Positions 1,305-53,140 of a stretch of DNA of 64,000 nucleotides are shown in pieces; position 1 is the first letter of the stretch, and each line of letters opens with the position of its first letter. The stretch spans positions 59,187 to 123,186 of the forward strand of contig CAWHNC010000090.1 of assembly GCA_963830245.1 (NCBI GenBank), in the 5' to 3' direction. Source of the stretch: Nitrospirota bacterium. Its GTDB lineage: Bacteria > Nitrospirota > Thermodesulfovibrionia > Thermodesulfovibrionales > Dissulfurispiraceae. A program made the translations under genes and the position numbers. The notes under the pieces were generated by a model. That model made no database searches. It had not been told where the DNA came from and saw nothing but the letters and a program-made list of their open reading frames with translations.

Positions 1305-2632
1305 ATGAACGCCGTGGATATACAGTCCTTGGACCCAAGACTTCCAACAATTCAACAGGCAGACCTTGCAGGTAAAACGGTCCTTGTGAGATTCGACCAT
1401 AATGTAGTGAAGGACGGAGAGATCAGAGATCCGTTCAGGATTGACCAGACCTTTGGCACGCTTTATAACATTGTCGAGCGGGGCGGCAGACCCATTCTAA
1501 TGACCCATGTGGGCAGGCCGAAGGATAAAAAGACAGGCGACATCGCCTGCAAGGCTTCTGAGTCTGTTGAGCCTATCGCCGAATATCTCGAACACAAGCT
1601 GCATACTACCTTCCATATCCCGCGATTCAATATTGACCCCAAGCTTGGCATAGTGGGGATAGATACGTCCATTAATCTTGCCATCCGCAGCTTGCGTGAA
1701 CATAAAATCGGGGGGATCTATCTTCCCAATACCAGGTGGTTTCAGGGAGAGGAAGCAGGGGGGGAGGCACGGGAAAACTTTGCGCTCCAGCTTGCGGGCC
1801 TCGCAGACATTTTTATCAATGACGCCTTTGGCTCATGGCAGCCCCATGCCTCAACATATGATGTGACAAAGCATTTGCCGTCCTATGCCGGATTTTTGAT
1901 GCAGCAGGAAATAGCCAATTTAAATTCGGTTATTAATCCGGAGCGCCCCTTTGTTGCCGTTGTTGCAGGGGCAAAATACGACACAAAAATAGGCCCGCTC
2001 TACGCCATTTATGACAAGGTTGATAAACTGATTCTGGGTGGAGTGATTTATAACGCTTTCCTTTGCGCCAAATATGGGGTAAAGATCGAAGGGGTATCTG
2101 ATAAAGACGTTACGGCTGCTAAAGAGCTCGTTGAAAAAGACAGGATCAATGGTAAAATCGTAGAGCTTCCTTACCTTGTGGAATCAGACACCCTTGAAGG
2201 GAAAGTTGAGGGGAAATACAGAAACCTCTCCATCAAAGATTTCATCCCGGGAAACAATACAAATACATACTCGATATTGATGCCCGGTCTTTTGAGGACG
2301 AGGCAGTGGCCGCTAGCATTCTTGACGCCAAAACTATTTTCGTCAATGCGGTAATGGGGTATACCCCTCATTTTACAGCGGGTTCGGAAGCATTGGACAG
2401 CACGATAGACCATAACAGGACCGCTATTAAAATGTACGGGGGAGGAGACACGCTCCAGGAATTCAAGAATCTATGCCCCGGCCTTTATCTTTCGGTGCTT
2501 GATAATACTCAATACTACTTCTTTACGGGCGGGGGCACGGTCCTCACTGCGATAGAGCAGGGGAGCCCTTACGGACTCAAGCCGCTCGAGGCTTTGATGG
2601 AAAATAAGAGTGCCCTAAAAAATCAATTTTAA
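1305..2632 (+). pseudogene. pgk: phosphoglycerate kinase, reading frame broken near 2250-2270 (true pseudogene or homopolymer miscall)
   Basis: ORF 1305-2354 carries the PGK N-domain (VLVRFDHNV, ILMTHVGRPK). The -1 frame continues ...YILDIDARSFEDEAVAASILDAKTIFVNAVMG...GGGDT (ORF 2306-2632). One extra A in the aaa run at 2261-2263 would fuse the two halves. Confidence 0.8.
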
Positions 2633-2636
2633 ATTT

Positions 2637-2691
2637 TGAATGTTGAATTAGTGAAGAATCCTTAATTTAACATTCAACATTCAGCATTTTT
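2637..2691 (+). terminator. hairpin plus T-run after pgk
   Basis: tgaatgttgaat (2637-2648) pairs with attcaacattca (2672-2683), a 12-bp stem followed by gcattttt. The arms contain gaatgtt/aacattc tandem words. Confidence 0.45.
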
Positions 2692-2710
2692 GAAAACGAG
2701 GGAGGGGTCA

Positions 2711-3925
2711 ATGGCAAGTATAAAAAAGATAGGCGTCATCACAAGCGGTGGTGATTGCGGCGGTCTTAACGCGGTCATTAAAGGGGTGTCACGCGAGGCT
2801 TATGCCCATGGGATCGAATCAGTTGTTATTCCCAACGGTTACGCCGGTCTTTACAACCTCGTGGAACTCGAATCAGTTGTACTGCTTAATGCGGAGAGGA
2901 TCAGCCGCATCGAGGCCTCGCTTGCAGGAAGCGAAGCCGGCCATTCACGGGTCAAGATCAGCAAAATAGCAGACCCGAAAAAGTATGAGCGCATTAAAGA
3001 AGGGCTCAGGAAGTTCGGCATAGACGCCCTGGTCATAAGCGGTGGCGATGATACGGGAAGTGTTGTAGTGGACCTCGGCTCCCAGGGCATACCCTGCGTG
3101 CATGTCCCCAAGACCATGGACCTCGATCTCCAGACTTACAGCGTTGGAGGAGACTCATCAATTAACAGGGTCGCTATTTTTACACGGGAACTGAAAACCA
3201 CGGGCCTCAGCCACAACCGTATCCTCGCGATAGAAGTATTCGGCAGATATGTGGGACATACCGCGCTGCATGGCGGGATCGGCGCTGAAGCCGACTGCAT
3301 ATTGATACCTGAAATCCCCGTGGACTTTGATGTCGTATACAGCGATATGAAAACCACTTATTGCAACAGGGTCATGCGCAGCGATGTGAAGGCAGGGACA
3401 TATATAATCGTTGTTGCCGAGGGCATGAAGAATGCGACTGGTGAAATGCTTTATGACGACGCAGCAGGAGTGGACGCCTTCGGTCATAAAAAACTTGCGG
3501 GCGCGGGGAAATATGTGAGGCAGGAGCTTGAGAAACGCCTGAAGGAGGACCCCGCAATGAAAGAGTTTATGAAAGAGACTGGAATGTATGCGCCCGGCGT
3601 ATACGAAGTACCCGAGGTGCGGGAAGTCACGCCTGGCCATCTTGTGCGCGCAGGAGGGTCTTCAGCCTATGATGTGAATTTCGGGTACAAGGCGGGCGCC
3701 TGCGCAGTGCTTATGCTGATAGAGGGGAAGACAGGCAACACCATTGTCGATGTTGATGGCAACCAAATATCCTATATCCCGACACCCGAGGCAATTAAAC
3801 AGAGAAAAGTTGATACCGCTGAAATTGCCCTTTTTGAGAGCCTGGGCACCTGCTTCGGGCGCAAGCCTGAAAAGTTCAACTACGAACTTGTAGAAAGGAA
3901 AATTCCAATAGCGAGGCATATTTAA
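2711..3925 (+). CDS. phosphofructokinase family protein (PPi-type residue signature)
   Basis: Motifs GVITSGGDCGGLNAVI, ISGGDDTGS, VPKTMDLD and FGRYVGH. ATG 2711 is preceded by gagggagggg. Confidence 0.85.
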   Translation: MASIKKIGVITSGGDCGGLNAVIKGVSREAYAHGIESVVIPNGYAGLYNLVELESVVLLNAERISRIEASLAGSEAGHSRVKISKIADPKKYERIKEGLRKFGIDALVISGGDDTGSVVVDLGSQGIPCVHVPKTMDLDLQTYSVGGDSSINRVAIFTRELKTTGLSHNRILAIEVFGRYVGHTALHGGIGAEADCILIPEIPVDFDVVYSDMKTTYCNRVMRSDVKAGTYIIVVAEGMKNATGEMLYDDAAGVDAFGHKKLAGAGKYVRQELEKRLKEDPAMKEFMKETGMYAPGVYEVPEVREVTPGHLVRAGGSSAYDVNFGYKAGACAVLMLIEGKTGNTIVDVDGNQISYIPTPEAIKQRKVDTAEIALFESLGTCFGRKPEKFNYELVERKIPIARHI

Positions 3926-3939
3926 TATGGCAAGAAAAA

Positions 3940-5178
3940 GTGACGGCACAGTCGGCATCATTGTCGGGGGGGGCCGGCCCGGGGATTAATGGCGTTATCA
4001 GTTCGGCTACTATTGAAGCTGTTAATCAGGGCAGGAAGGTCGTCGGCATAAAAGGGGGATTCAAGCCGCTCTTTGAAGGCAGGACAGACTGCACTCTTCC
4101 GCTCAACATATGTGACGTATCGAGGATACATACGCAGGGCGGCTCTATTTTAAGGACCTCACGGGACTTCCCTGACAGGGTAAAGGAGAGATTTGCGATA
4201 TTGATGTCGACGCTCAAGCAGCTCGACATCAACTATCTTGTTACTGTCGGCGGCGAGGGCACACTTTTTATGGCTAACTGGATTGGCCGGGAATCCAGGG
4301 GGGACATGAGTATCGTGCATGTCCCAAAAACTATTGATAACGATATCCCTTTGCCGGGGGGAGCTTCGACGTTCGGCTTTCAGACGGCGCGGCATCTCGG
4401 AGTGGAGATTGTCCAAAACATAATGGAAGACGCCAAGACCACCGGCCGGTGGTACTTTATCACCACGATGGGCAGGCATGCCGGCCATCTTGCTTTAGGC
4501 ATCGGAAAGGCTGCAGGGACAACAATAACGCTCATTGCAGAGGAATTCACCGAGGACAAGGTCTCCTTCAAGAAGGTTGCCGATGTGCTTGCAGGCTCTA
4601 TAATAAAGAGACTCGCCTACGGCATAGACCACGGGGTTGCTGTACTTGCCGAAGGCATTTCCGAGAAATTCGATTATGACGAACTCAGCGATTATGAGCA
4701 GGTGGAAAAGGATGAAACCGGTAGGACCAGGCTTTCCGAAATCCAGCTTGGCAGGGTGTTAAAGACTTTTGTGATGAACACGCTTGAGTCTCTGGGCATA
4801 CATACTACCATTGTGGACAAGAACATAGGCTATGAACTGCGGGCTGCCGCCCCCATCCCGTTTGACCTTGAATATACGAGAGACCTTGGCTACGGCGCCA
4901 TCCGGTACCTCCTCAGAGGTGGGACTGATGCAATGATTGTGCTCAGTGACGGGCATTTGAGAGCTATTCCTTTTGCCGAGATGGTGGACTATGCCACAGG
5001 CAATATGAAGATCAGGAAAGTGGATATCACTTCTGAAACGTATGAGGTGGCACTGAAGTATATGCGGCGATTAACTCGCGACGATTTTGAAGGGGAGCCG
5101 CTGCAACGCCTTGCCGGCACGGTTAGTCTGAGTCCCCGCGAATTTATCGGCAGATTCGGCTATCTTGTCGGCCTCTGA
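3940..5178 (+). CDS. second phosphofructokinase paralogue; N-terminus interrupted by a G8 tract
   Basis: Motifs GGAGPGINGVI, TVGGEGT, VPKTIDNDI and MGRHAGHLAL. A natural ATG at 3927 (MARKSDGTVGIIVGG...) is in another frame and stops at 3987. The frames meet in the G8 run at 3966-3973. Confidence 0.8.
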   Translation: MTAQSASLSGGAGPGINGVISSATIEAVNQGRKVVGIKGGFKPLFEGRTDCTLPLNICDVSRIHTQGGSILRTSRDFPDRVKERFAILMSTLKQLDINYLVTVGGEGTLFMANWIGRESRGDMSIVHVPKTIDNDIPLPGGASTFGFQTARHLGVEIVQNIMEDAKTTGRWYFITTMGRHAGHLALGIGKAAGTTITLIAEEFTEDKVSFKKVADVLAGSIIKRLAYGIDHGVAVLAEGISEKFDYDELSDYEQVEKDETGRTRLSEIQLGRVLKTFVMNTLESLGIHTTIVDKNIGYELRAAAPIPFDLEYTRDLGYGAIRYLLRGGTDAMIVLSDGHLRAIPFAEMVDYATGNMKIRKVDITSETYEVALKYMRRLTRDDFEGEPLQRLAGTVSLSPREFIGRFGYLVGL

Positions 5179-5179
5179 G

Positions 5180-5641
5180 ATGCAAGGGTCTGTGAACATC
5201 CAGAGGGAGGATCTGGAGAGGGCTGAAAGACTCAAGATTGTTTTTCAGGCACTCTACGAAGTGAACAAAAGAATCCCTATAATTGTCGAGGGTAAAAGGG
5301 ATGTTTCCGCCCTCAGGAAAATAGGCCTGGTAGGTGAAATCATCGCGCTCCACGGCGGTATGGGCATATATGAATTCTGTGAGGATATAGCTGAACGGTT
5401 CCACCGTGTTGTCCTTCTTACAGATTGGGACAATAAAGGAGAGCATCTCTATAAAACTGTAGCAGAGCATTTAAAAGGCTCCTGGGAGGAATTTTCGCCG
5501 TTCAGAGAAATAGTCAAGGTCCTTTGCCAGAAAGATATAAAGGACGTAGAAGGAGTCCCTCTGCTCCTGGAACGGCTGGCCGGGGCAGCAATCAAGGTCG
5601 GAGAGACCGGGGAATCAGAAGGCTTCCGCGGTGATATTTGA
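5180..5641 (+). CDS. Toprim domain protein
   Basis: IIVEGKRDVSAL and LLTDWDNKGE resemble the Toprim E and DxD motifs. Confidence 0.6.
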   Translation: MQGSVNIQREDLERAERLKIVFQALYEVNKRIPIIVEGKRDVSALRKIGLVGEIIALHGGMGIYEFCEDIAERFHRVVLLTDWDNKGEHLYKTVAEHLKGSWEEFSPFREIVKVLCQKDIKDVEGVPLLLERLAGAAIKVGETGESEGFRGDI

Positions 5642-9320: not shown

Positions 9321-10793
9321 TCAATAGGAATTGACGCCAGTCACAAGTGATGTTGCATCCATGTTTCCAATAGCACTCCAGAAAACAGGCCAGTTTGCAG
9401 CGGTAATCGGGTCACTCTCGTTACTGTTAGTTGGAGCAGAATAATTATTCCCGGAAAAAAAGTACCCTCTGTAAAGTGACTGTTGTGCACTATTCGTTTT
9501 AAGCAATGGATAAAGATTTGTTAAGGAGTTATTTAAAGGACCTTGCATGGCGTACGCTGCCGAAAAAGTGTAATAGCTGTTAAACTGTGCCGGCAAGGTA
9601 GCGAGGTCGTAATTTATGGAAACATAATCTACAGGCTGAAATGTACCGGAAGAAATTTTAAATATCTTGAAAGCCGGGTTATTGCCAAAAAACGGTGCTA
9701 TAGAAGGCGTAATCTCCAGCACGTTATTAGTAGGCGACATGATGCGATATTCATCCATATGAGTATGGGCTCCAAGCGTCAGGCTTATAAGACCCGGATA
9801 TTTCTGAAGCGTGGTCATAAAGCTCGACTGGTAATTCGGCTCCAACATCATGTAGGCTGACGTTGTTGTAACCGGAAGACCGTTGGCGACCGTTGCAGCT
9901 ATGACGTCACCAGGGGGCACATGCATTAAAAGCCACACTTTTTGGCCGGCAGCCTGGGCTGCAGCAAGCTGGGAATCAAGCCATGCAATTTCAGTTGCTA
10001 CCGCAGCGCTGTTGTCAACCGGGACTCCATTCGCGAGCAAAATCGTGTTAATTCCTATCACCACCAGATTTGTTCCAAGCGGCCGGCAAGAATAATATCC
10101 ACCGGCAGTAAAGGTACTATTAAAAGTCTGCCGGTCCGTAATTCCATTCAGGAAATTTGTGTAAAAGTTTTCCGCATTACTGGAAAGGAAAGCGCTGTCC
10201 GGCCCCCAACCCGTATAAGAATCAAGGTTTCCGACAGCAAACAGGACAGGAACATTCGCGAGTGCAGCCCTCACCTGAGTTGTAAAGAATGAAACCGCTT
10301 TATCAGTAAATGCCTCTAAGGCTGCAACTGCTGCAGCACCTGAACTTCCGTAAAGGGTGAAAAACCTTGTCGGAATGTTATGCCCAAGAATATCGCCTGT
10401 ATAGATAACAAGCGGACACGACCCAAGGTTTCGACTTATGTTTGCAAGGGCGAGCATGAGCAAAGGGTAGTTTGTATCGTTTCCCCATGTTGGTGGTGTT
10501 GTTATTTTTGATGTCTGGAAAATACTCGCCCACTGACCGGGATCCGAAGAATTAAGCAACGGGAAAAGAGTTTGATCGTATAGAGGATCAAAATGAACAT
10601 CCGAGAAAACAAGCACCGGGAAGCTACTCCCGGAAGAAGCGCCGCTGCCACATGCACTCAGTCCGGCGAAATACGCACCGGCAGCTGTAGCCGCCGAATA
10701 CTTTATGAAGTCGCGCCTTGTTATCCCTTTTATACCGCAACCGTCGAGAACTGAATTTAAGTCATCGCCTTTACTGTCTTTACTGTTTTTCAC
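9321..10793 (-). CDS. Tat-exported lipoprotein, acid-sphingomyelinase-like metallophosphoesterase
   Basis: Twin-arginine RRDFIKYS and lipobox LSAC. Metallophosphoesterase motifs SDVHFD, GDILGHN, GNLDS, MHVPPG and GAHTHMDEY. GTG start preceded by aggaga. Confidence 0.75.
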   Translation of the reverse strand: MKNSKDSKGDDLNSVLDGCGIKGITRRDFIKYSAATAAGAYFAGLSACGSGASSGSSFPVLVFSDVHFDPLYDQTLFPLLNSSDPGQWASIFQTSKITTPPTWGNDTNYPLLMLALANISRNLGSCPLVIYTGDILGHNIPTRFFTLYGSSGAAAVAALEAFTDKAVSFFTTQVRAALANVPVLFAVGNLDSYTGWGPDSAFLSSNAENFYTNFLNGITDRQTFNSTFTAGGYYSCRPLGTNLVVIGINTILLANGVPVDNSAAVATEIAWLDSQLAAAQAAGQKVWLLMHVPPGDVIAATVANGLPVTTTSAYMMLEPNYQSSFMTTLQKYPGLISLTLGAHTHMDEYRIMSPTNNVLEITPSIAPFFGNNPAFKIFKISSGTFQPVDYVSINYDLATLPAQFNSYYTFSAAYAMQGPLNNSLTNLYPLLKTNSAQQSLYRGYFFSGNNYSAPTNSNESDPITAANWPVFWSAIGNMDATSLVTGVNSY

Positions 10794-10958
10794 AATGTTC
10801 TCCTGTTATTGGTGGTATGCATCTTTATTCGCTTAATGGCCCGCTCTCCGGGATAAAGACCTGAGCTTGGGTCCGGAACATGCTCGAAAGGTCCTCTACG
10901 CTCCCGGGCAGGCATTCATCTTTTGTCTAAAGGCACGGGGTTAAACAACTGACCTGTT

Positions 10959-10987
10959 ATTATATCTGAGTTAAGCAACTCTATCAA
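10959..10987 (-). promoter_or_regulatory. sigma-70-type promoter (TTGATA-17-TATAAT) for the phosphoesterase gene
   Basis: Reverse complement of 10982-10987 is TTGATA and of 10959-10964 is TATAAT, with a 17-nt spacer. Confidence 0.45.
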
Positions 10988-11023
10988 CACACCCGGTCAT
11001 TCCAGTGTTTGAATAAATAATAG

Positions 11024-11052
11024 TTGACTTACGAGCTCAAGTATTATATAAT
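11024..11052 (+). promoter_or_regulatory. near-consensus sigma-70 promoter TTGACT-17-TATAAT
   Basis: TTGACT at 11024-11029, an exactly 17-nt spacer, TATAAT at 11047-11052. Confidence 0.6.
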
Positions 11053-11058
11053 TTAATC

Positions 11059-11291
11059 AGAGAGAGAGGGAAAAACTCTCTCTCTGCCCTTTCTCCACGT
11101 ACGGTGTCAGATACGGGAGAAAGGATCCTCGAAAGAGGCGACGGGGCTGCAGAAGACAGACCCGGGTTAACTGACGGAAATGAAGCAAAAGTTGCTGATT
11201 GGTTGGCTAACCAAAGAGGTTACCGGGCGTTTTCCGGCAACCTTTAAAAAGTGAGGTAGGCGGCTTAAGTGCCATCTACCTCTTATTTTTT
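11059..11291 (+). ncRNA. candidate stand-alone structured small RNA of unknown class (~230 nt)
   Basis: Bounded by a consensus promoter and an intrinsic terminator, with no ORF of 60 aa or more. Contains a 5' (ag)5/(ct)5 hairpin, a cctttctcc/ggagaaagg stem, a cctcGAAAgagg tetraloop hairpin, and ttggtt/aaccaa and ggttaccgg/ccggcaacc hairpins. Confidence 0.5.
11253..11291. terminator. intrinsic terminator, probably bidirectional
   Basis: gaggtag (11253-11259) pairs with ctacctc (11276-11282), plus inner ggc/gcc pairs, followed by ttatttttt. An A-run on the left serves the convergent minus-strand regulator gene. Confidence 0.65.
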
Positions 11292-11325
11292 GTCTGGGTT
11301 CCTCGCCGCCTGGAGCTTACCGTCG

Positions 11326-13241
11326 TCAAGGGATCAAAGCGTTCTGACTTTTGAGTCGGCGCCACAACGTAGTTCGACTAATCCCCAGTTTGGCGGCTGT
11401 TTTGCCATAATGGTAGTTTGATTCCTCCAGCGCCTTCAGCAACAATGACTTGTTCAAGTCAAAATTGAAGGGAGAATCTGCTGCAGACGTAGCTATGGAT
11501 GATCCTTCACGATTATTTTCCCCGGCTAACGGCCGCAACAACATTCCTTCGAGGTCCCCGGACTCGATGACGCCGCTTTTATTGAGGACAGCAAGGCGTT
11601 CCGCAATGTTGCGCAATTCACGCACATTGCCAGGCCAATGATGTTCTTGCAATATTCTCCGGCCTTCCGGGCTGATGTCACTACAAGGCCTGCCCAAAAA
11701 TTGACAATATTTTTTGACAAAGTGAGATATTAGCGGGATGATGTCTTCATGTCGTTCCCGGAGCGGCGGCAGGTCAAGCCTGAGCACATTGATCCGATAA
11801 TAAAGGTCTTCGCGAAAGAGCCCTTCCTGTGTCAGCTTGTAAAGGTTCCGATTTGTAGCCGCAATAATACGGACGTCAATGGGGATAATCTTGTCATCGC
11901 CGAGGCGCATTATTTCCCTCTCCTGCAACACTCGCAATAACCGTCCCTGCAGCTTTAATGGGAATTCCGATATCTCATCTAAAAAGATCGTTCCCGGTGA
12001 GCCAGTTCAAATAAACCCATTTTCCCCCCGCGGACTGCGCCGGTAAATGCCCCGGTTGCATAACCGAAAAGCTCACTTTCCAGGAGATTCTCCGGCAATG
12101 CTGCGCAGTTTACAGCTAAAAAAGGTCCATTTCGGCGGCGGCTGGCATTGTGAATACTCTGGGCGAAGATTTCCTTTCCGGTTCCGGTTTCGCCTATGAT
12201 GAGGATGGTTGAATTCACCTCGCCAAATTCTTTTGCAACTGATATGGTTTGCCTGATGGCGTGACTTTCACCCAAAATATCGGAAAAAGTCAGTTTAGCC
12301 ACATGACCACGCTCATAATCTTTGCGTCGAATCCTTCCCTCCAACTCCTGGATAACACTGACAGGCTGAAACGTTGCGACAGCTCCTACTGCCCGGCCGT
12401 TGACGAAAATCGGGACTCTGTTAACAGCAAGCCTCTGCCCATTGATTGTTTCAATTTCCCCTAATTCGGAGTGTCCCGTTTCCAAAACTTTTCCGAGACC
12501 CAATTGTGGGAAAAAGCTATCAACAGGCAGGCAGATTACCGCATCACTAACGCCGGTCAACTTCACAGCAGCTGAATTTACCAGGTCAATGATGCCTGCA
12601 GCATTGACTGCTATAACGCCTTCAGTCGCATAATCCAGGATTGCATGGAACTGTTCCGCACGCTCCTGCTCCTGACGACGTATAAGTGCCACGCGTTTCG
12701 CACTTTTCAAGGCATGATAGACATCTTCCTGCGCTATTTTTATGAATTCGGCGTACATGCCGTATTGCTCAGCTATTACCTTGGACATTACTCCGCCAAT
12801 GACCACATTGACTCCGTTTTCTTTCACGCGCTGAATGCTCGCTACAACTTCGTTTTCATCCTGGATTGCAACTACTATTAACTCGATCCCAACGATATCC
12901 TCGATTTTTTTTACGCCATAAATCATATCCCGGGAGCCGACAATCGCAATTTTTTCAGGGGCATATTTTTTTTTGCATTCCCAAATAGTTCTCATTATTT
13001 CATAGCCGCTTACCGGAAGCTCTACAACCGGCGTGTCCTTTATGCGCTGTTTTAAAGTGGCTGCCGTGATTCCCCGGGCAACAATGACATCCGTGCTTAT
13101 GTTTTTCCAGTCATCAATTTCGCGCTCAAACTTGGCCAGACAAATTTCGAGTTCCCAACCGTCATCCCCTTGCTCTTTGAATACCTCTTTCACTATGTCG
13201 CCTATTTCCGAATATGGAACAAAAAAAGTTATCTTACCCAC
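11326..13241 (-). pseudogene. sigma-54-dependent transcriptional activator (PrpR_N-PAS-AAA+-HTH), frame broken inside the AAA+ domain
   Basis: ORF 11979-13241 carries the PrpR-type N-domain, a PAS domain, GETGTGKE and ESELFGY...GLFELAH. ORF 11326-11937 carries RVLQEREIMRLG...IIAATN, a GAFTGA-family core and a C-terminal HTH. The missing [18 protein letters not shown] is readable in the third frame across 11940-11995. The break is at the ccc run 11993-11995. Confidence 0.85.
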
Positions 13242-51225: not shown

Positions 51226-51328
51226 GTAAGCAGTAGGCACTAAGCAGTAGGCAGCAAAAAAAGAAAAAATCAGAGTATAAGTTGGTCCATTTTTAATCTT
51301 TTGTGCTTACTGCCTACTGCTTACTGCC
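51226..51328. repeat. intergenic inverted repeat built from GCAGTAR heptamers
   Basis: gtaagcagtaggca (51226-51239) pairs perfectly with tgcctactgcttac (51311-51324). A second register (51241-51254 with 51310-51323) is also perfect. The loop is A/T-rich. Confidence 0.55.
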
Positions 51329-52953: not shown

Positions 52954-53035
52954 AAAAAACTCCTGCTCTCATTAATATTAAGAGCAGGAGTTATCAGTCC
53001 TTAAAGGACGGTTACCGGCGAACTCCATCGCCCTG
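52954..53035 (-). promoter_or_regulatory. fluoride riboswitch (crcB motif) with a terminator expression platform
   Basis: The minus strand reads GGGCGAUGGAGUUCGCCGGUAACCGUCCUUUAAGGACUGAUAACUCCUGC, matching the conserved crcB-motif pattern: GGCGAUG, pseudoknot GGAGUU/AACUCC, P3 GUCC/GGAC and CUGAU. The 3' pseudoknot strand is shared with an 11-bp terminator stem (52959-52969 with 52981-52991) plus a U-run. Confidence 0.8.
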
Positions 53036-53140
53036 AAAACAGCATAATTTATAAACTATCAGAATATGACAGTATAGTCAATAAAATAATCAAAACGATT
53101 GATTATTTAATCAAGTACTCGCCAGTTTCAGGAATTCCCC

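Follow-up and report, generated by a model that had tools for sequence, protein, structure and literature searches.

X RNA, a candidate family of free-standing structured small RNAs in uncultured wetland Nitrospirota

Introduction

The described bacterial systems standing closest to the RNA reported here are the 6S RNA (SsrS, RF00013), the CsrB/RsmY/RsmZ RNAs, and the small RNAs (sRNAs) that end in an Hfq-binding module of the SgrS type. In enterobacteria, the latter module begins with one or more hairpins, continues as a single strand rich in A and U, and closes with a terminator hairpin whose U-tail is six or more residues long, a layout reportedly worked out in the Aiba laboratory. The present study deals with positions 11015-11291 of a 64,000-nucleotide stretch of DNA, hereafter the window, from a Nitrospirota bacterium (GenBank assembly GCA_963830245.1, contig CAWHNC010000090.1, positions 59,187 to 123,186), where an initial annotation made from the letters alone had pointed to an orphan structured transcript, called X RNA below. 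Peat, fens and wet soils commonly harbour uncultured anaerobic Nitrospirota, about whose regulation, to our knowledge, almost nothing is known. With respect to the 6S RNA, tandem genes, namely ssrSA and ssrSB, exist in the Bacillus cereus group (PMC7726162).

Compared with 6S RNA, X RNA is alike in being abundant and non-coding, in its strong sigma-70 promoter, in a similar depth of coverage and in physical linkage, but it lacks 6S similarity both in sequence and to the covariance model, folds into seven hairpins and not into a rod, and ends in an intrinsic terminator. The ssrSA-ssrSB pair (PMC7726162) likewise consists of two abundant small RNA genes arranged head to tail, the first being a 6S gene; both members of the Bacillus pair are 6S RNAs, though, whereas X RNA is a second RNA of unrelated fold which, in most genomes, lies away from the 6S locus under its own promoter. 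Like CsrB, RsmY and RsmZ, X RNA is a multi-hairpin, free-standing and abundant molecule with several gene copies in some genomes, but it is not enriched in GGA loop motifs and has no Csr/Rsm match in Rfam. As for the SgrS-type module, its order is echoed at the 3' end of X RNA by hairpin P6, UUUAAAAAGU, hairpin P7 and a U-tail of 6-8 residues, a portable arrangement that also closes one 6S copy (locus L056); unlike what an Hfq module needs, though, the stem and loop of P7 as well as the linker are invariant throughout the family. In the literature, no described Nitrospirota RNA resembling X RNA was found, nor any 6S-linked sRNA except the tandem 6S genes of Bacillus. X RNA is a new family among the free-standing bacterial small RNAs and belongs to none of the 6S, Csr/Rsm and Hfq-module families; the features that stand out are the 6S-X arrangement and the portable, near-invariant, double-hairpin 3' module.

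The explanation favoured overall, in which we place about as much confidence as doubt when it is taken as a whole, is that the interval 11015-11291 holds a free-standing gene for an abundant, structured and trans-acting sRNA of ~232 nt, the first of its family to be described. Considered separately, the existence of the gene, the structure of its RNA and the transcription seen in relatives have good support and are very probably correct.

Promoter, Transcript, and Terminator

The promoter of X RNA (11015-11052, + strand) is composed of an A/T-rich stretch, AATAATAG, abutting the -35 box TTGACT (11024-11029), a 17-nt spacer with the conserved motif GCTCAAGT, and the -10 box TATAAT (11047-11052). 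In a promoter scan, TTGACT-17-TATAAT (11024-11052) agreed with the sigma-70 consensus at 11 of 12 positions, which bears out the single mismatch reported in the initial annotation, and the -35 box, spacer motif and -10 box are kept in 12 of the 15 homologous loci. The transcript would start at ~11059, i.e., 7 nt past the -10 box, and end within the U-run, giving an RNA of ~232 nt (11059-11291, + strand). A covariance model built for the family (R1) matches the window over 11058-11293 at 250 bits, the window holding a single copy.

The terminator (11253-11291, + strand), also recognised in the initial annotation, corresponds to a stem running from G11253 to C11282, which is the hairpin P7, followed by TTATTTTTT (11283-11291). 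In the fold, this stem comprises 8+3 bp with one C.A mismatch, and it is present in every X homologue. P7 was missed by a simple terminator scan of the + strand, probably because of this internal C.A mismatch, and termination at P7 is instead deduced from the fold and from RNA coverage in relatives, where depth falls to 0 downstream.

No gene follows X RNA on the + strand, the next gene being convergent, and flanking genes are unrelated across loci, so that the initial view that X RNA is not a leader holds. As surmised there as well, X RNA lies between a phosphoesterase gene and a sigma-54 regulator gene, the latter being found split by a frameshift. Upstream and divergent is the TAT-signal Metallophos phosphoesterase gene (9321-10793, - strand); downstream and convergent is the PrpR_N/PAS/sigma-54 activator, carried by two open reading frames (ORFs; 11326-11937 and 11979-13241, - strand).

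Comparison with Known RNA Families

Scanned with Infernal against Rfam 15 at the gathering score, the window gave no match to X RNA, in agreement with the failure of the initial annotation to recognise a known family; the sole hit lies elsewhere and is a fluoride riboswitch (crcB motif) at 52978-53041 (- strand, 55.2 bits). Relaxing the Rfam 15 cut-off to E ≤ 10 over the region 10780-11400 brought up nothing beyond chance matches to microRNAs and FsrA (12-15 bits), and on the homologous loci Rfam found nothing over X RNA. ARAGORN detected 0 tRNA or tmRNA genes in 10500-11800. Regarding architecture, both the minimum free energy (MFE) fold and RNAalifold give seven local hairpins in place of the 6S rod with its closing stem, central bubble and terminal stem. 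Measured against the many, usually five or more, exposed A(N)GGA motifs of a CsrB/Rsm RNA, X RNA falls short, with 4-7 GGA per molecule, of which only that in the P1 loop is common to all members. It does display the layout of an Hfq-type 3' module, namely UUUAAAAAGU, then P7, then UUAUUUUUU, and it has the attributes of an independent sRNA in general, i.e., a conserved promoter and terminator, metatranscriptome coverage and a conserved structure.

Seven Consecutive Hairpins

Folded from 11058 to 11291 (234 nt), X RNA has an MFE of -101.6 kcal/mol against a mean of -67.5 kcal/mol for 200 dinucleotide shuffles (z = -7.6), none of which (0/200) was as stable. A discrete structured RNA of ~230 nt had been proposed initially, with at least six hairpins; the length is ~232 nt, all six listed hairpins are present on the + strand, and a seventh, P4, had not been listed. 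The fold is a row of seven consecutive local hairpins, all of which RNAalifold recovers from 14 sequences, with 65 pairs in total.

P1 (11058-11086, + strand, as are all the following) is an (AG)n/(CU)n hairpin with a variable stem, where three of seven modelled pairs show double-sided changes, and a conserved GGA(A)C loop. P2 (11088-11124) pairs CCUUUCUCC with GGAGAAAGG and carries a distal stem of 3 bp and a loop of ~11 nt; 95% of its cells, i.e., its base pairs counted over all aligned sequences, are paired and its changes are one-sided (G.U) only. P3 (11127-11138), CCUC-GAAA-GAGG, is near-invariant, with 98% of cells paired and a GNRA-type tetraloop. P4 (11142-11164) has the form GGGRCUG/CAGYCCC around a 7-nt loop, CAGWAGA; in the window it reads GGGGCUG/CAGACCC with one G.A mismatch, where relatives have A-U, G-U or G-C. 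P5 (11165-11212), a long hairpin, has 12 bp at its base, GGUUAGCUGACG/CGUCGGCUAACC, double-sided changes in two pairs, and a variable distal part with indels of 4, 5, and 9 nt.

The near-invariant 3' module opens with P6 (11213-11245), AAAG-AG-GUU-A-CCGGG/UCCGG-C-AAC-CUUU, which includes a conserved A.C mismatch and in which G11225-C11235 becomes A-U in most relatives; at L056, the stem is kept by compensatory changes, CCAGG/UCUGG becoming CCGAA/UUCGG. The linker J6/7 (11246-11252) is an A-rich single strand, AAAAAGU, which together with the preceding CUUU forms UUUAAAAAGU; it is identical in 14 of 15 members, L060 having one change just upstream of it. In the terminator hairpin P7 (11253-11282), 100% of cells are paired and nine of 11 pairs are invariant, while in one peat contig (run X18) the G.U and C.A are swapped for U-A and G-C.

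Conservation of Structure, Strand, and Coding Potential

The unit from promoter to terminator was recovered at 15 other loci, its structure being kept with some covariation, so that the conservation named as a check in the initial annotation was found. When 15 sequences were aligned with MAFFT, standard pairs made up 96.2% of cells, compared with 41-52% in slid controls where pairing partners were moved by 1-3 columns. This alignment contains six double-sided pairs, compared with a shuffle mean of 2.0, and its covariation score was reached by 0 of 500 shuffles. An alignment fitted to the model, which is biased toward structure by construction, has 96.6% of cells paired and the same six double-sided pairs against 1.7 in shuffles. 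The double-sided changes are confined to P1, P5, and P6; overall, paired positions are 94% conserved and unpaired ones 82%.

Fold energy by itself does not choose the strand, as the minus strand reaches -98 kcal/mol (z = -7.8). Of 973 paired cells, 97 are G.U, and pairing drops to 88.0% on the opposite strand vs 96.6% on the + strand; X RNA is assigned to the + strand on account of the promoter, the U-run and these G.U pairs.

A GTG-initiated ORF of 47 aa in the ORF list (11104-11247) overlaps X RNA and, together with the intergenic position, might be taken to indicate a small protein gene or a cis element, i.e., a 5' leader, a riboswitch or the 3' untranslated region (UTR) of a neighbour. This ORF, the longest on the + strand, is intact in only seven of 15 members and has no Pfam match; indels of 1, 2, 4, and 5 nt among members disrupt every reading frame, and no conserved ORF is found in X RNA. 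Neither does X RNA keep a constant position before a related gene on the same strand, as a cis leader would: the next gene is convergent, the terminator is always there, and the genes downstream differ from locus to locus. Taken together, a cis element or small protein gene is hardly credible.

Homologues and Genomic Context

Exact-pattern scans of genome and metagenome collections yielded 15 full-length homologues plus a partial one (L056), which are 78-88% identical to the window. An initial exact pattern that included the U-tail was over-strict and found a single locus; since the searches required exact words, the distribution given here is a lower bound. Full-length copies occur in six metagenome-assembled genomes (MAGs) labelled Nitrospirota or "Nitrospiraceae" (L036, L046, L048, L051, L052, L053, L055, L057, L060) and in Joint Genome Institute (JGI) metagenomes (L037, L038, L039, L041, L043). 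All homologues come from Nitrospirota MAGs or from wetland and peat metagenomes and, within the reach of pattern searches, the family appears confined to a clade of Nitrospirota that are uncultured and live in wetland and peat. The Logan read index adds soil and wetland runs carrying X sequence. Two pattern hits on viral contigs are chance matches (~20 bits on the covariance model, to a P7-like hairpin only), and L040 is a chance match of the same kind. Such restriction to a lineage, along with multiple copies in some genomes and the 6S linkage in a sister lineage described below, is a feature that was invisible to the initial annotation.

Homology begins at the A/T-rich stretch next to the -35 box or, at the two loci without this promoter, where the transcript starts, and ends at the U-run, with ~18 further bases common beyond it in one subgroup. 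Flanking genes show no similarity between any of the X loci, and the downstream genes vary in both identity and orientation. A 1054-nt DNA contig aligns to the window over 11015-11291 only, both its flanks being unlike the window. Because its neighbours are never the same, X RNA is considered to act in trans.

A search anchored on the phosphoesterase led to 35 loci, the best being in a Nitrospirota MAG with 88% protein identity, and none of the 35 (0/35) has X RNA beside the phosphoesterase gene; in the MAG with the 88%-identical protein, X RNA is on another contig (L053). In the closest relative, the intergenic DNA beside the phosphoesterase gene is not alignable with the window, the upstream part proximal to the ribosome binding site being common to both. 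That relative (L001) carries two tandem phosphoesterase paralogues (2443-3921 and 4001-5479) and a gene of 222 aa, the window having a single copy.

A position that differs in every genome, even between close relatives, and up to four copies in one MAG, some of which are near IS21 copies and a RelE gene, could suggest that X RNA travels as cargo on a mobile or selfish element or is what remains of one. The borders of X RNA, though, carry neither terminal inverted nor direct repeats, homology stops exactly at promoter and U-run (save for the ≤ ~18 extra bases of one subgroup), and no transposase or integrase is consistently adjacent. BLAST found no match in plasmid or phage collections, the viral-contig hits are chance, and copy number is 1-4 and not in the tens, which leaves this origin scarcely probable.

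With respect to copies, MFD04752.bin.2.24 has three full ones and one partial, and MFD01476.bin.1.65 has two. A 2.8-kb repeat, 100% identical between L048 (2630-5466), L055 (1179-4015, reversed) and L056 (1-969), is of the IS21 family, with an IstA-like protein (rve and Mu-transposase C) and IstB, and is found at distances of 0.8-5 kb from three of the X loci in one MAG; the fourth X locus of that MAG has a RelE toxin gene nearby (L060, 4128-4505). At L036, a cobalamin riboswitch (2506-2699, - strand, 104.7 bits) is located ~2 kb from X RNA and is unrelated to it. In DNA contigs from permafrost and peat (runs X14 and X18), one of which is 5.3 kb long, only P6-P7 (11205-11281) is common, at ~83-87% identity and with different flanks; further RNAs or loci thus appear to use the P6-P7 module.

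Transcription in Wetland Metatranscriptomes

Relatives of X RNA are present in at least 20 wetland and peat metatranscriptome runs, the L046 version being found in at least 18, and they form the discrete covered stretches expected of the transcript initially proposed. In the runs aligned to L046, contig depth, a rough measure, is 50-500 across the RNA. Beyond the terminator, it drops at once to 0 in three of four runs on L046, and each of the three runs aligning on L041 likewise has a depth of 0 past the U-run. Two wetland metatranscriptome contigs of 207 and 192 nt, ~95% identical to the window, cover 11075-11281 and 11071-11260, respectively, with nothing else within 1 kb except short cross-matches to a conserved sigma-54 domain. 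In situ, few non-ribosomal transcripts of these Nitrospirota appear to be more abundant than X RNA, which is in the range of 6S. None of the outcomes that the initial annotation had set against its own proposal, i.e., no transcript, no conservation or covariation, or a known family, was encountered.

Link to 6S RNA

Just upstream of X RNA at five loci lies a conserved element of 175 nt with its own promoter, TTGACA-17-TAAA(A/C)T: L041 (743-917), L052 (4871-5042, - strand), L048 (688-861), L056 (5761-5936), and L060 (3011-3185, - strand). The L048 element adopts a rod-like fold around a central bubble and matches RF00013 at 29.1 bits (E = 5e-4), the gathering score being 46.4. On these grounds of model similarity and fold, the element is taken to be the 6S RNA of the X-bearing lineage; since its score is below the Rfam threshold, standard annotation misses it. 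MFD04752.bin.2.24 holds three copies of this 6S element.

The spacing between both RNAs varies. At L041 and L052, which are devoid of an X promoter and where X RNA stands directly behind the 6S gene, it begins ~10 nt past 6S, and a scan of L041 finds the 6S promoter only. At L048 and L060, X RNA is ~130 and ~220 nt past 6S, respectively, with its own promoter in each case; at L060, two promoters are present and no terminator was found between 6S and X. At L056, 6S is joined directly to P6-P7 and, as one 6S copy thus carries P6-P7, the 3' module can be regarded as portable. In metatranscriptomes, 6S and X depths are of the same order, and RNA contigs extend from the 3' end of 6S into the L060-type spacer, one of them running straight into P2-like sequence. 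Both RNAs are apparently co-transcribed in the sister lineage. No 6S gene was found in the window, and from these arrangements X RNA is an independent gene in the lineage of the window and the distal part of a 6S-X unit in the sister lineage. An unconstrained RNAduplex search for pairing between 6S and X returned whole-molecule duplexes, which carried no information.

This tandem arrangement behind a 6S gene at five loci, an abundance close to that of 6S, and the precedent of tandem 6S genes in the B. cereus group (PMC7726162) could make X RNA a divergent second 6S-type RNA (6S-2- or ssrSA/ssrSB-like) binding the RNA polymerase holoenzyme. No Rfam 6S match is obtained for X RNA even at E ≤ 10, however, and it consists of seven local hairpins, with covariation in P1, P5, and P6, in place of a rod with its bubble and closing stem; moreover, it ends in an intrinsic terminator and not in a processed closing stem. 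A second 6S RNA is accordingly judged highly unlikely.

Possible Modes of Action

In the mechanism proposed, X RNA would be transcribed from the near-consensus sigma-70 promoter, fold into P1-P7 and end at the intrinsic terminator, where P6, the A/U-rich linker, P7 and the U-tail may serve at once as terminator and as a module for protein binding or stabilisation. The RNA could then work stoichiometrically, binding or sequestering a protein in the same growth-state programme as 6S. Such stoichiometric protein binding, itself rated somewhat less likely than not, is tentatively favoured over seed pairing for several reasons: (i) stems outconserve single strands (94% vs 82%), (ii) P7, the linker and the A.C mismatch of P6 and C.A mismatch of P7 are invariant beyond what a terminator needs, (iii) the only long accessible conserved stretch is the A/U-rich linker, and (iv) X RNA is about as abundant as 6S and co-expressed with it.

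Seed pairing, the main rival, would instead make X RNA a chaperone-dependent (Hfq-like) base-pairing sRNA, with a seed in the P2 loop or in opened pyrimidine arms and with P6, linker, P7 and U-tail as the chaperone module. The 3' end is indeed laid out like the Hfq-binding module of the SgrS work, the gene stands by itself between its own promoter and terminator, and complementarity to Shine-Dalgarno sequences is found in the pyrimidine-rich arms CCUUUCUCC, CUCUCUCU, and CUACCUCUU. Unpaired positions are less conserved than paired ones, though, and the tracts resembling an anti-Shine-Dalgarno sequence are all inside stable stems. When 81 start regions within the window were scanned for targets, a candidate site at 51226-51255, upstream of the ORF 51207-50152 (- strand), paired with J6/7 and the 5' arm of P7 at -23.7 kcal/mol, compared with a control best of -18.2 kcal/mol (sd 2.1); the remaining four query sets were no better than shuffled controls, and this single site falls within a long local inverted repeat. 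With Hfq, CsrA, and ProQ queries, tblastn gave no match in the window and the homologous loci, which make up a tiny fraction of the genomes. On balance, a base-pairing sRNA is unlikely, if far from negligible. The repeat itself (51226-51325, - strand), lying upstream of the ORF 51207-50152, is built of short tandem units (CAGTAAG/CAGTAGG and the like); its 3' arm reaches into the Shine-Dalgarno region and can pair with J6/7 and the P7 5' arm of X RNA, a complementarity that is probably due to chance.

Another rival is that X RNA is a CsrB/RsmZ-type sponge titrating CsrA through GGA motifs in loops, the molecule being a string of hairpins with GGA(A)C in the P1 loop of all members, GGAAC again between P2 and P3, and ACGGAAA in P5. 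The 4-7 GGA per molecule are to be compared with an estimated ~5-6 expected from composition, and most are in stems; two of three candidate sites are lost in some members, and the bulk of the conserved sequence is unrelated to GGA, so that a CsrA sponge has a very slight probability. The idea that P6-P7 mimics helix 45 of 16S rRNA and the anti-Shine-Dalgarno tail was rejected, as 268 of 500 shuffles aligned as well to a generic 16S 3' end.

Going one step beyond stoichiometric protein binding, X RNA might be a second global riboregulator beside 6S in slow-growing anaerobic Nitrospirota, binding a core machine or a global regulator, with P6-linker-P7 as the site of a lineage-specific RNA-binding protein and transplantable to other RNAs, including 6S. 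We regard this larger proposal as doubtful and rather improbable.

Several points weigh against the free-standing, abundant and trans-acting RNA favoured here. As to structure, P2, P3, P4, and P7 vary by G.U or not at all, their support being energy and conservation, and the closeness of the members (mean column identity of 84%) keeps covariation at a modest level; the conservation of stems can be explained by simple purifying selection over short distances. Concerning transcription, Logan contigs are strandless and their depth reflects expression poorly, one contig (X23) bridges X RNA and its divergent neighbour, and DNA carry-over or read-through may be behind the coverage; the exact allele of the window is found in DNA runs only, the RNA relatives being ~95% identical. 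The 6S linkage concerns five of 16 loci, in at least three organisms, the window not among them, and the mode of action is a proposal drawn from anatomy and linkage.

Other Features around the Locus

A second sigma-70 promoter, TTGATA-17-TATAAT (10987-10959, - strand), which agrees with the consensus at 11 of 12 positions, is divergent from that of X RNA and faces the phosphoesterase gene. A phosphoesterase mRNA made from this promoter would have a 5' UTR of ~160 nt, for which Rfam gives no match. The spacer and -10 box of this divergent promoter (10959-10976) form an imperfect inverted repeat with 11035-11052 of the X promoter. On the other side, the sigma-54 activator (11326-13241, - strand) is interrupted by a 1-nt frameshift at GCTCACCGGGAACGATC, near 11975-11990, within a conserved stretch of the protein; the split gene may be either a pseudogene or an assembly error of the homopolymer type.

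Significance

X RNA is an orphan structured RNA of seven helices with a GNRA tetraloop, more conserved than its surroundings and missing from Rfam. In the X-bearing lineage, current annotation misses both this RNA and the 6S RNA, and X RNA offers a marker, together with a covariance model, for the clade in metatranscriptomes. The 6S linkage and the 3' module common to both RNAs point to a testable connection with growth-state control. Were the global riboregulator proposal, doubtful as we hold it, to be true, X RNA would represent an abundant bacterial ribonucleoprotein of a new class, discovered in organisms never yet brought into culture.

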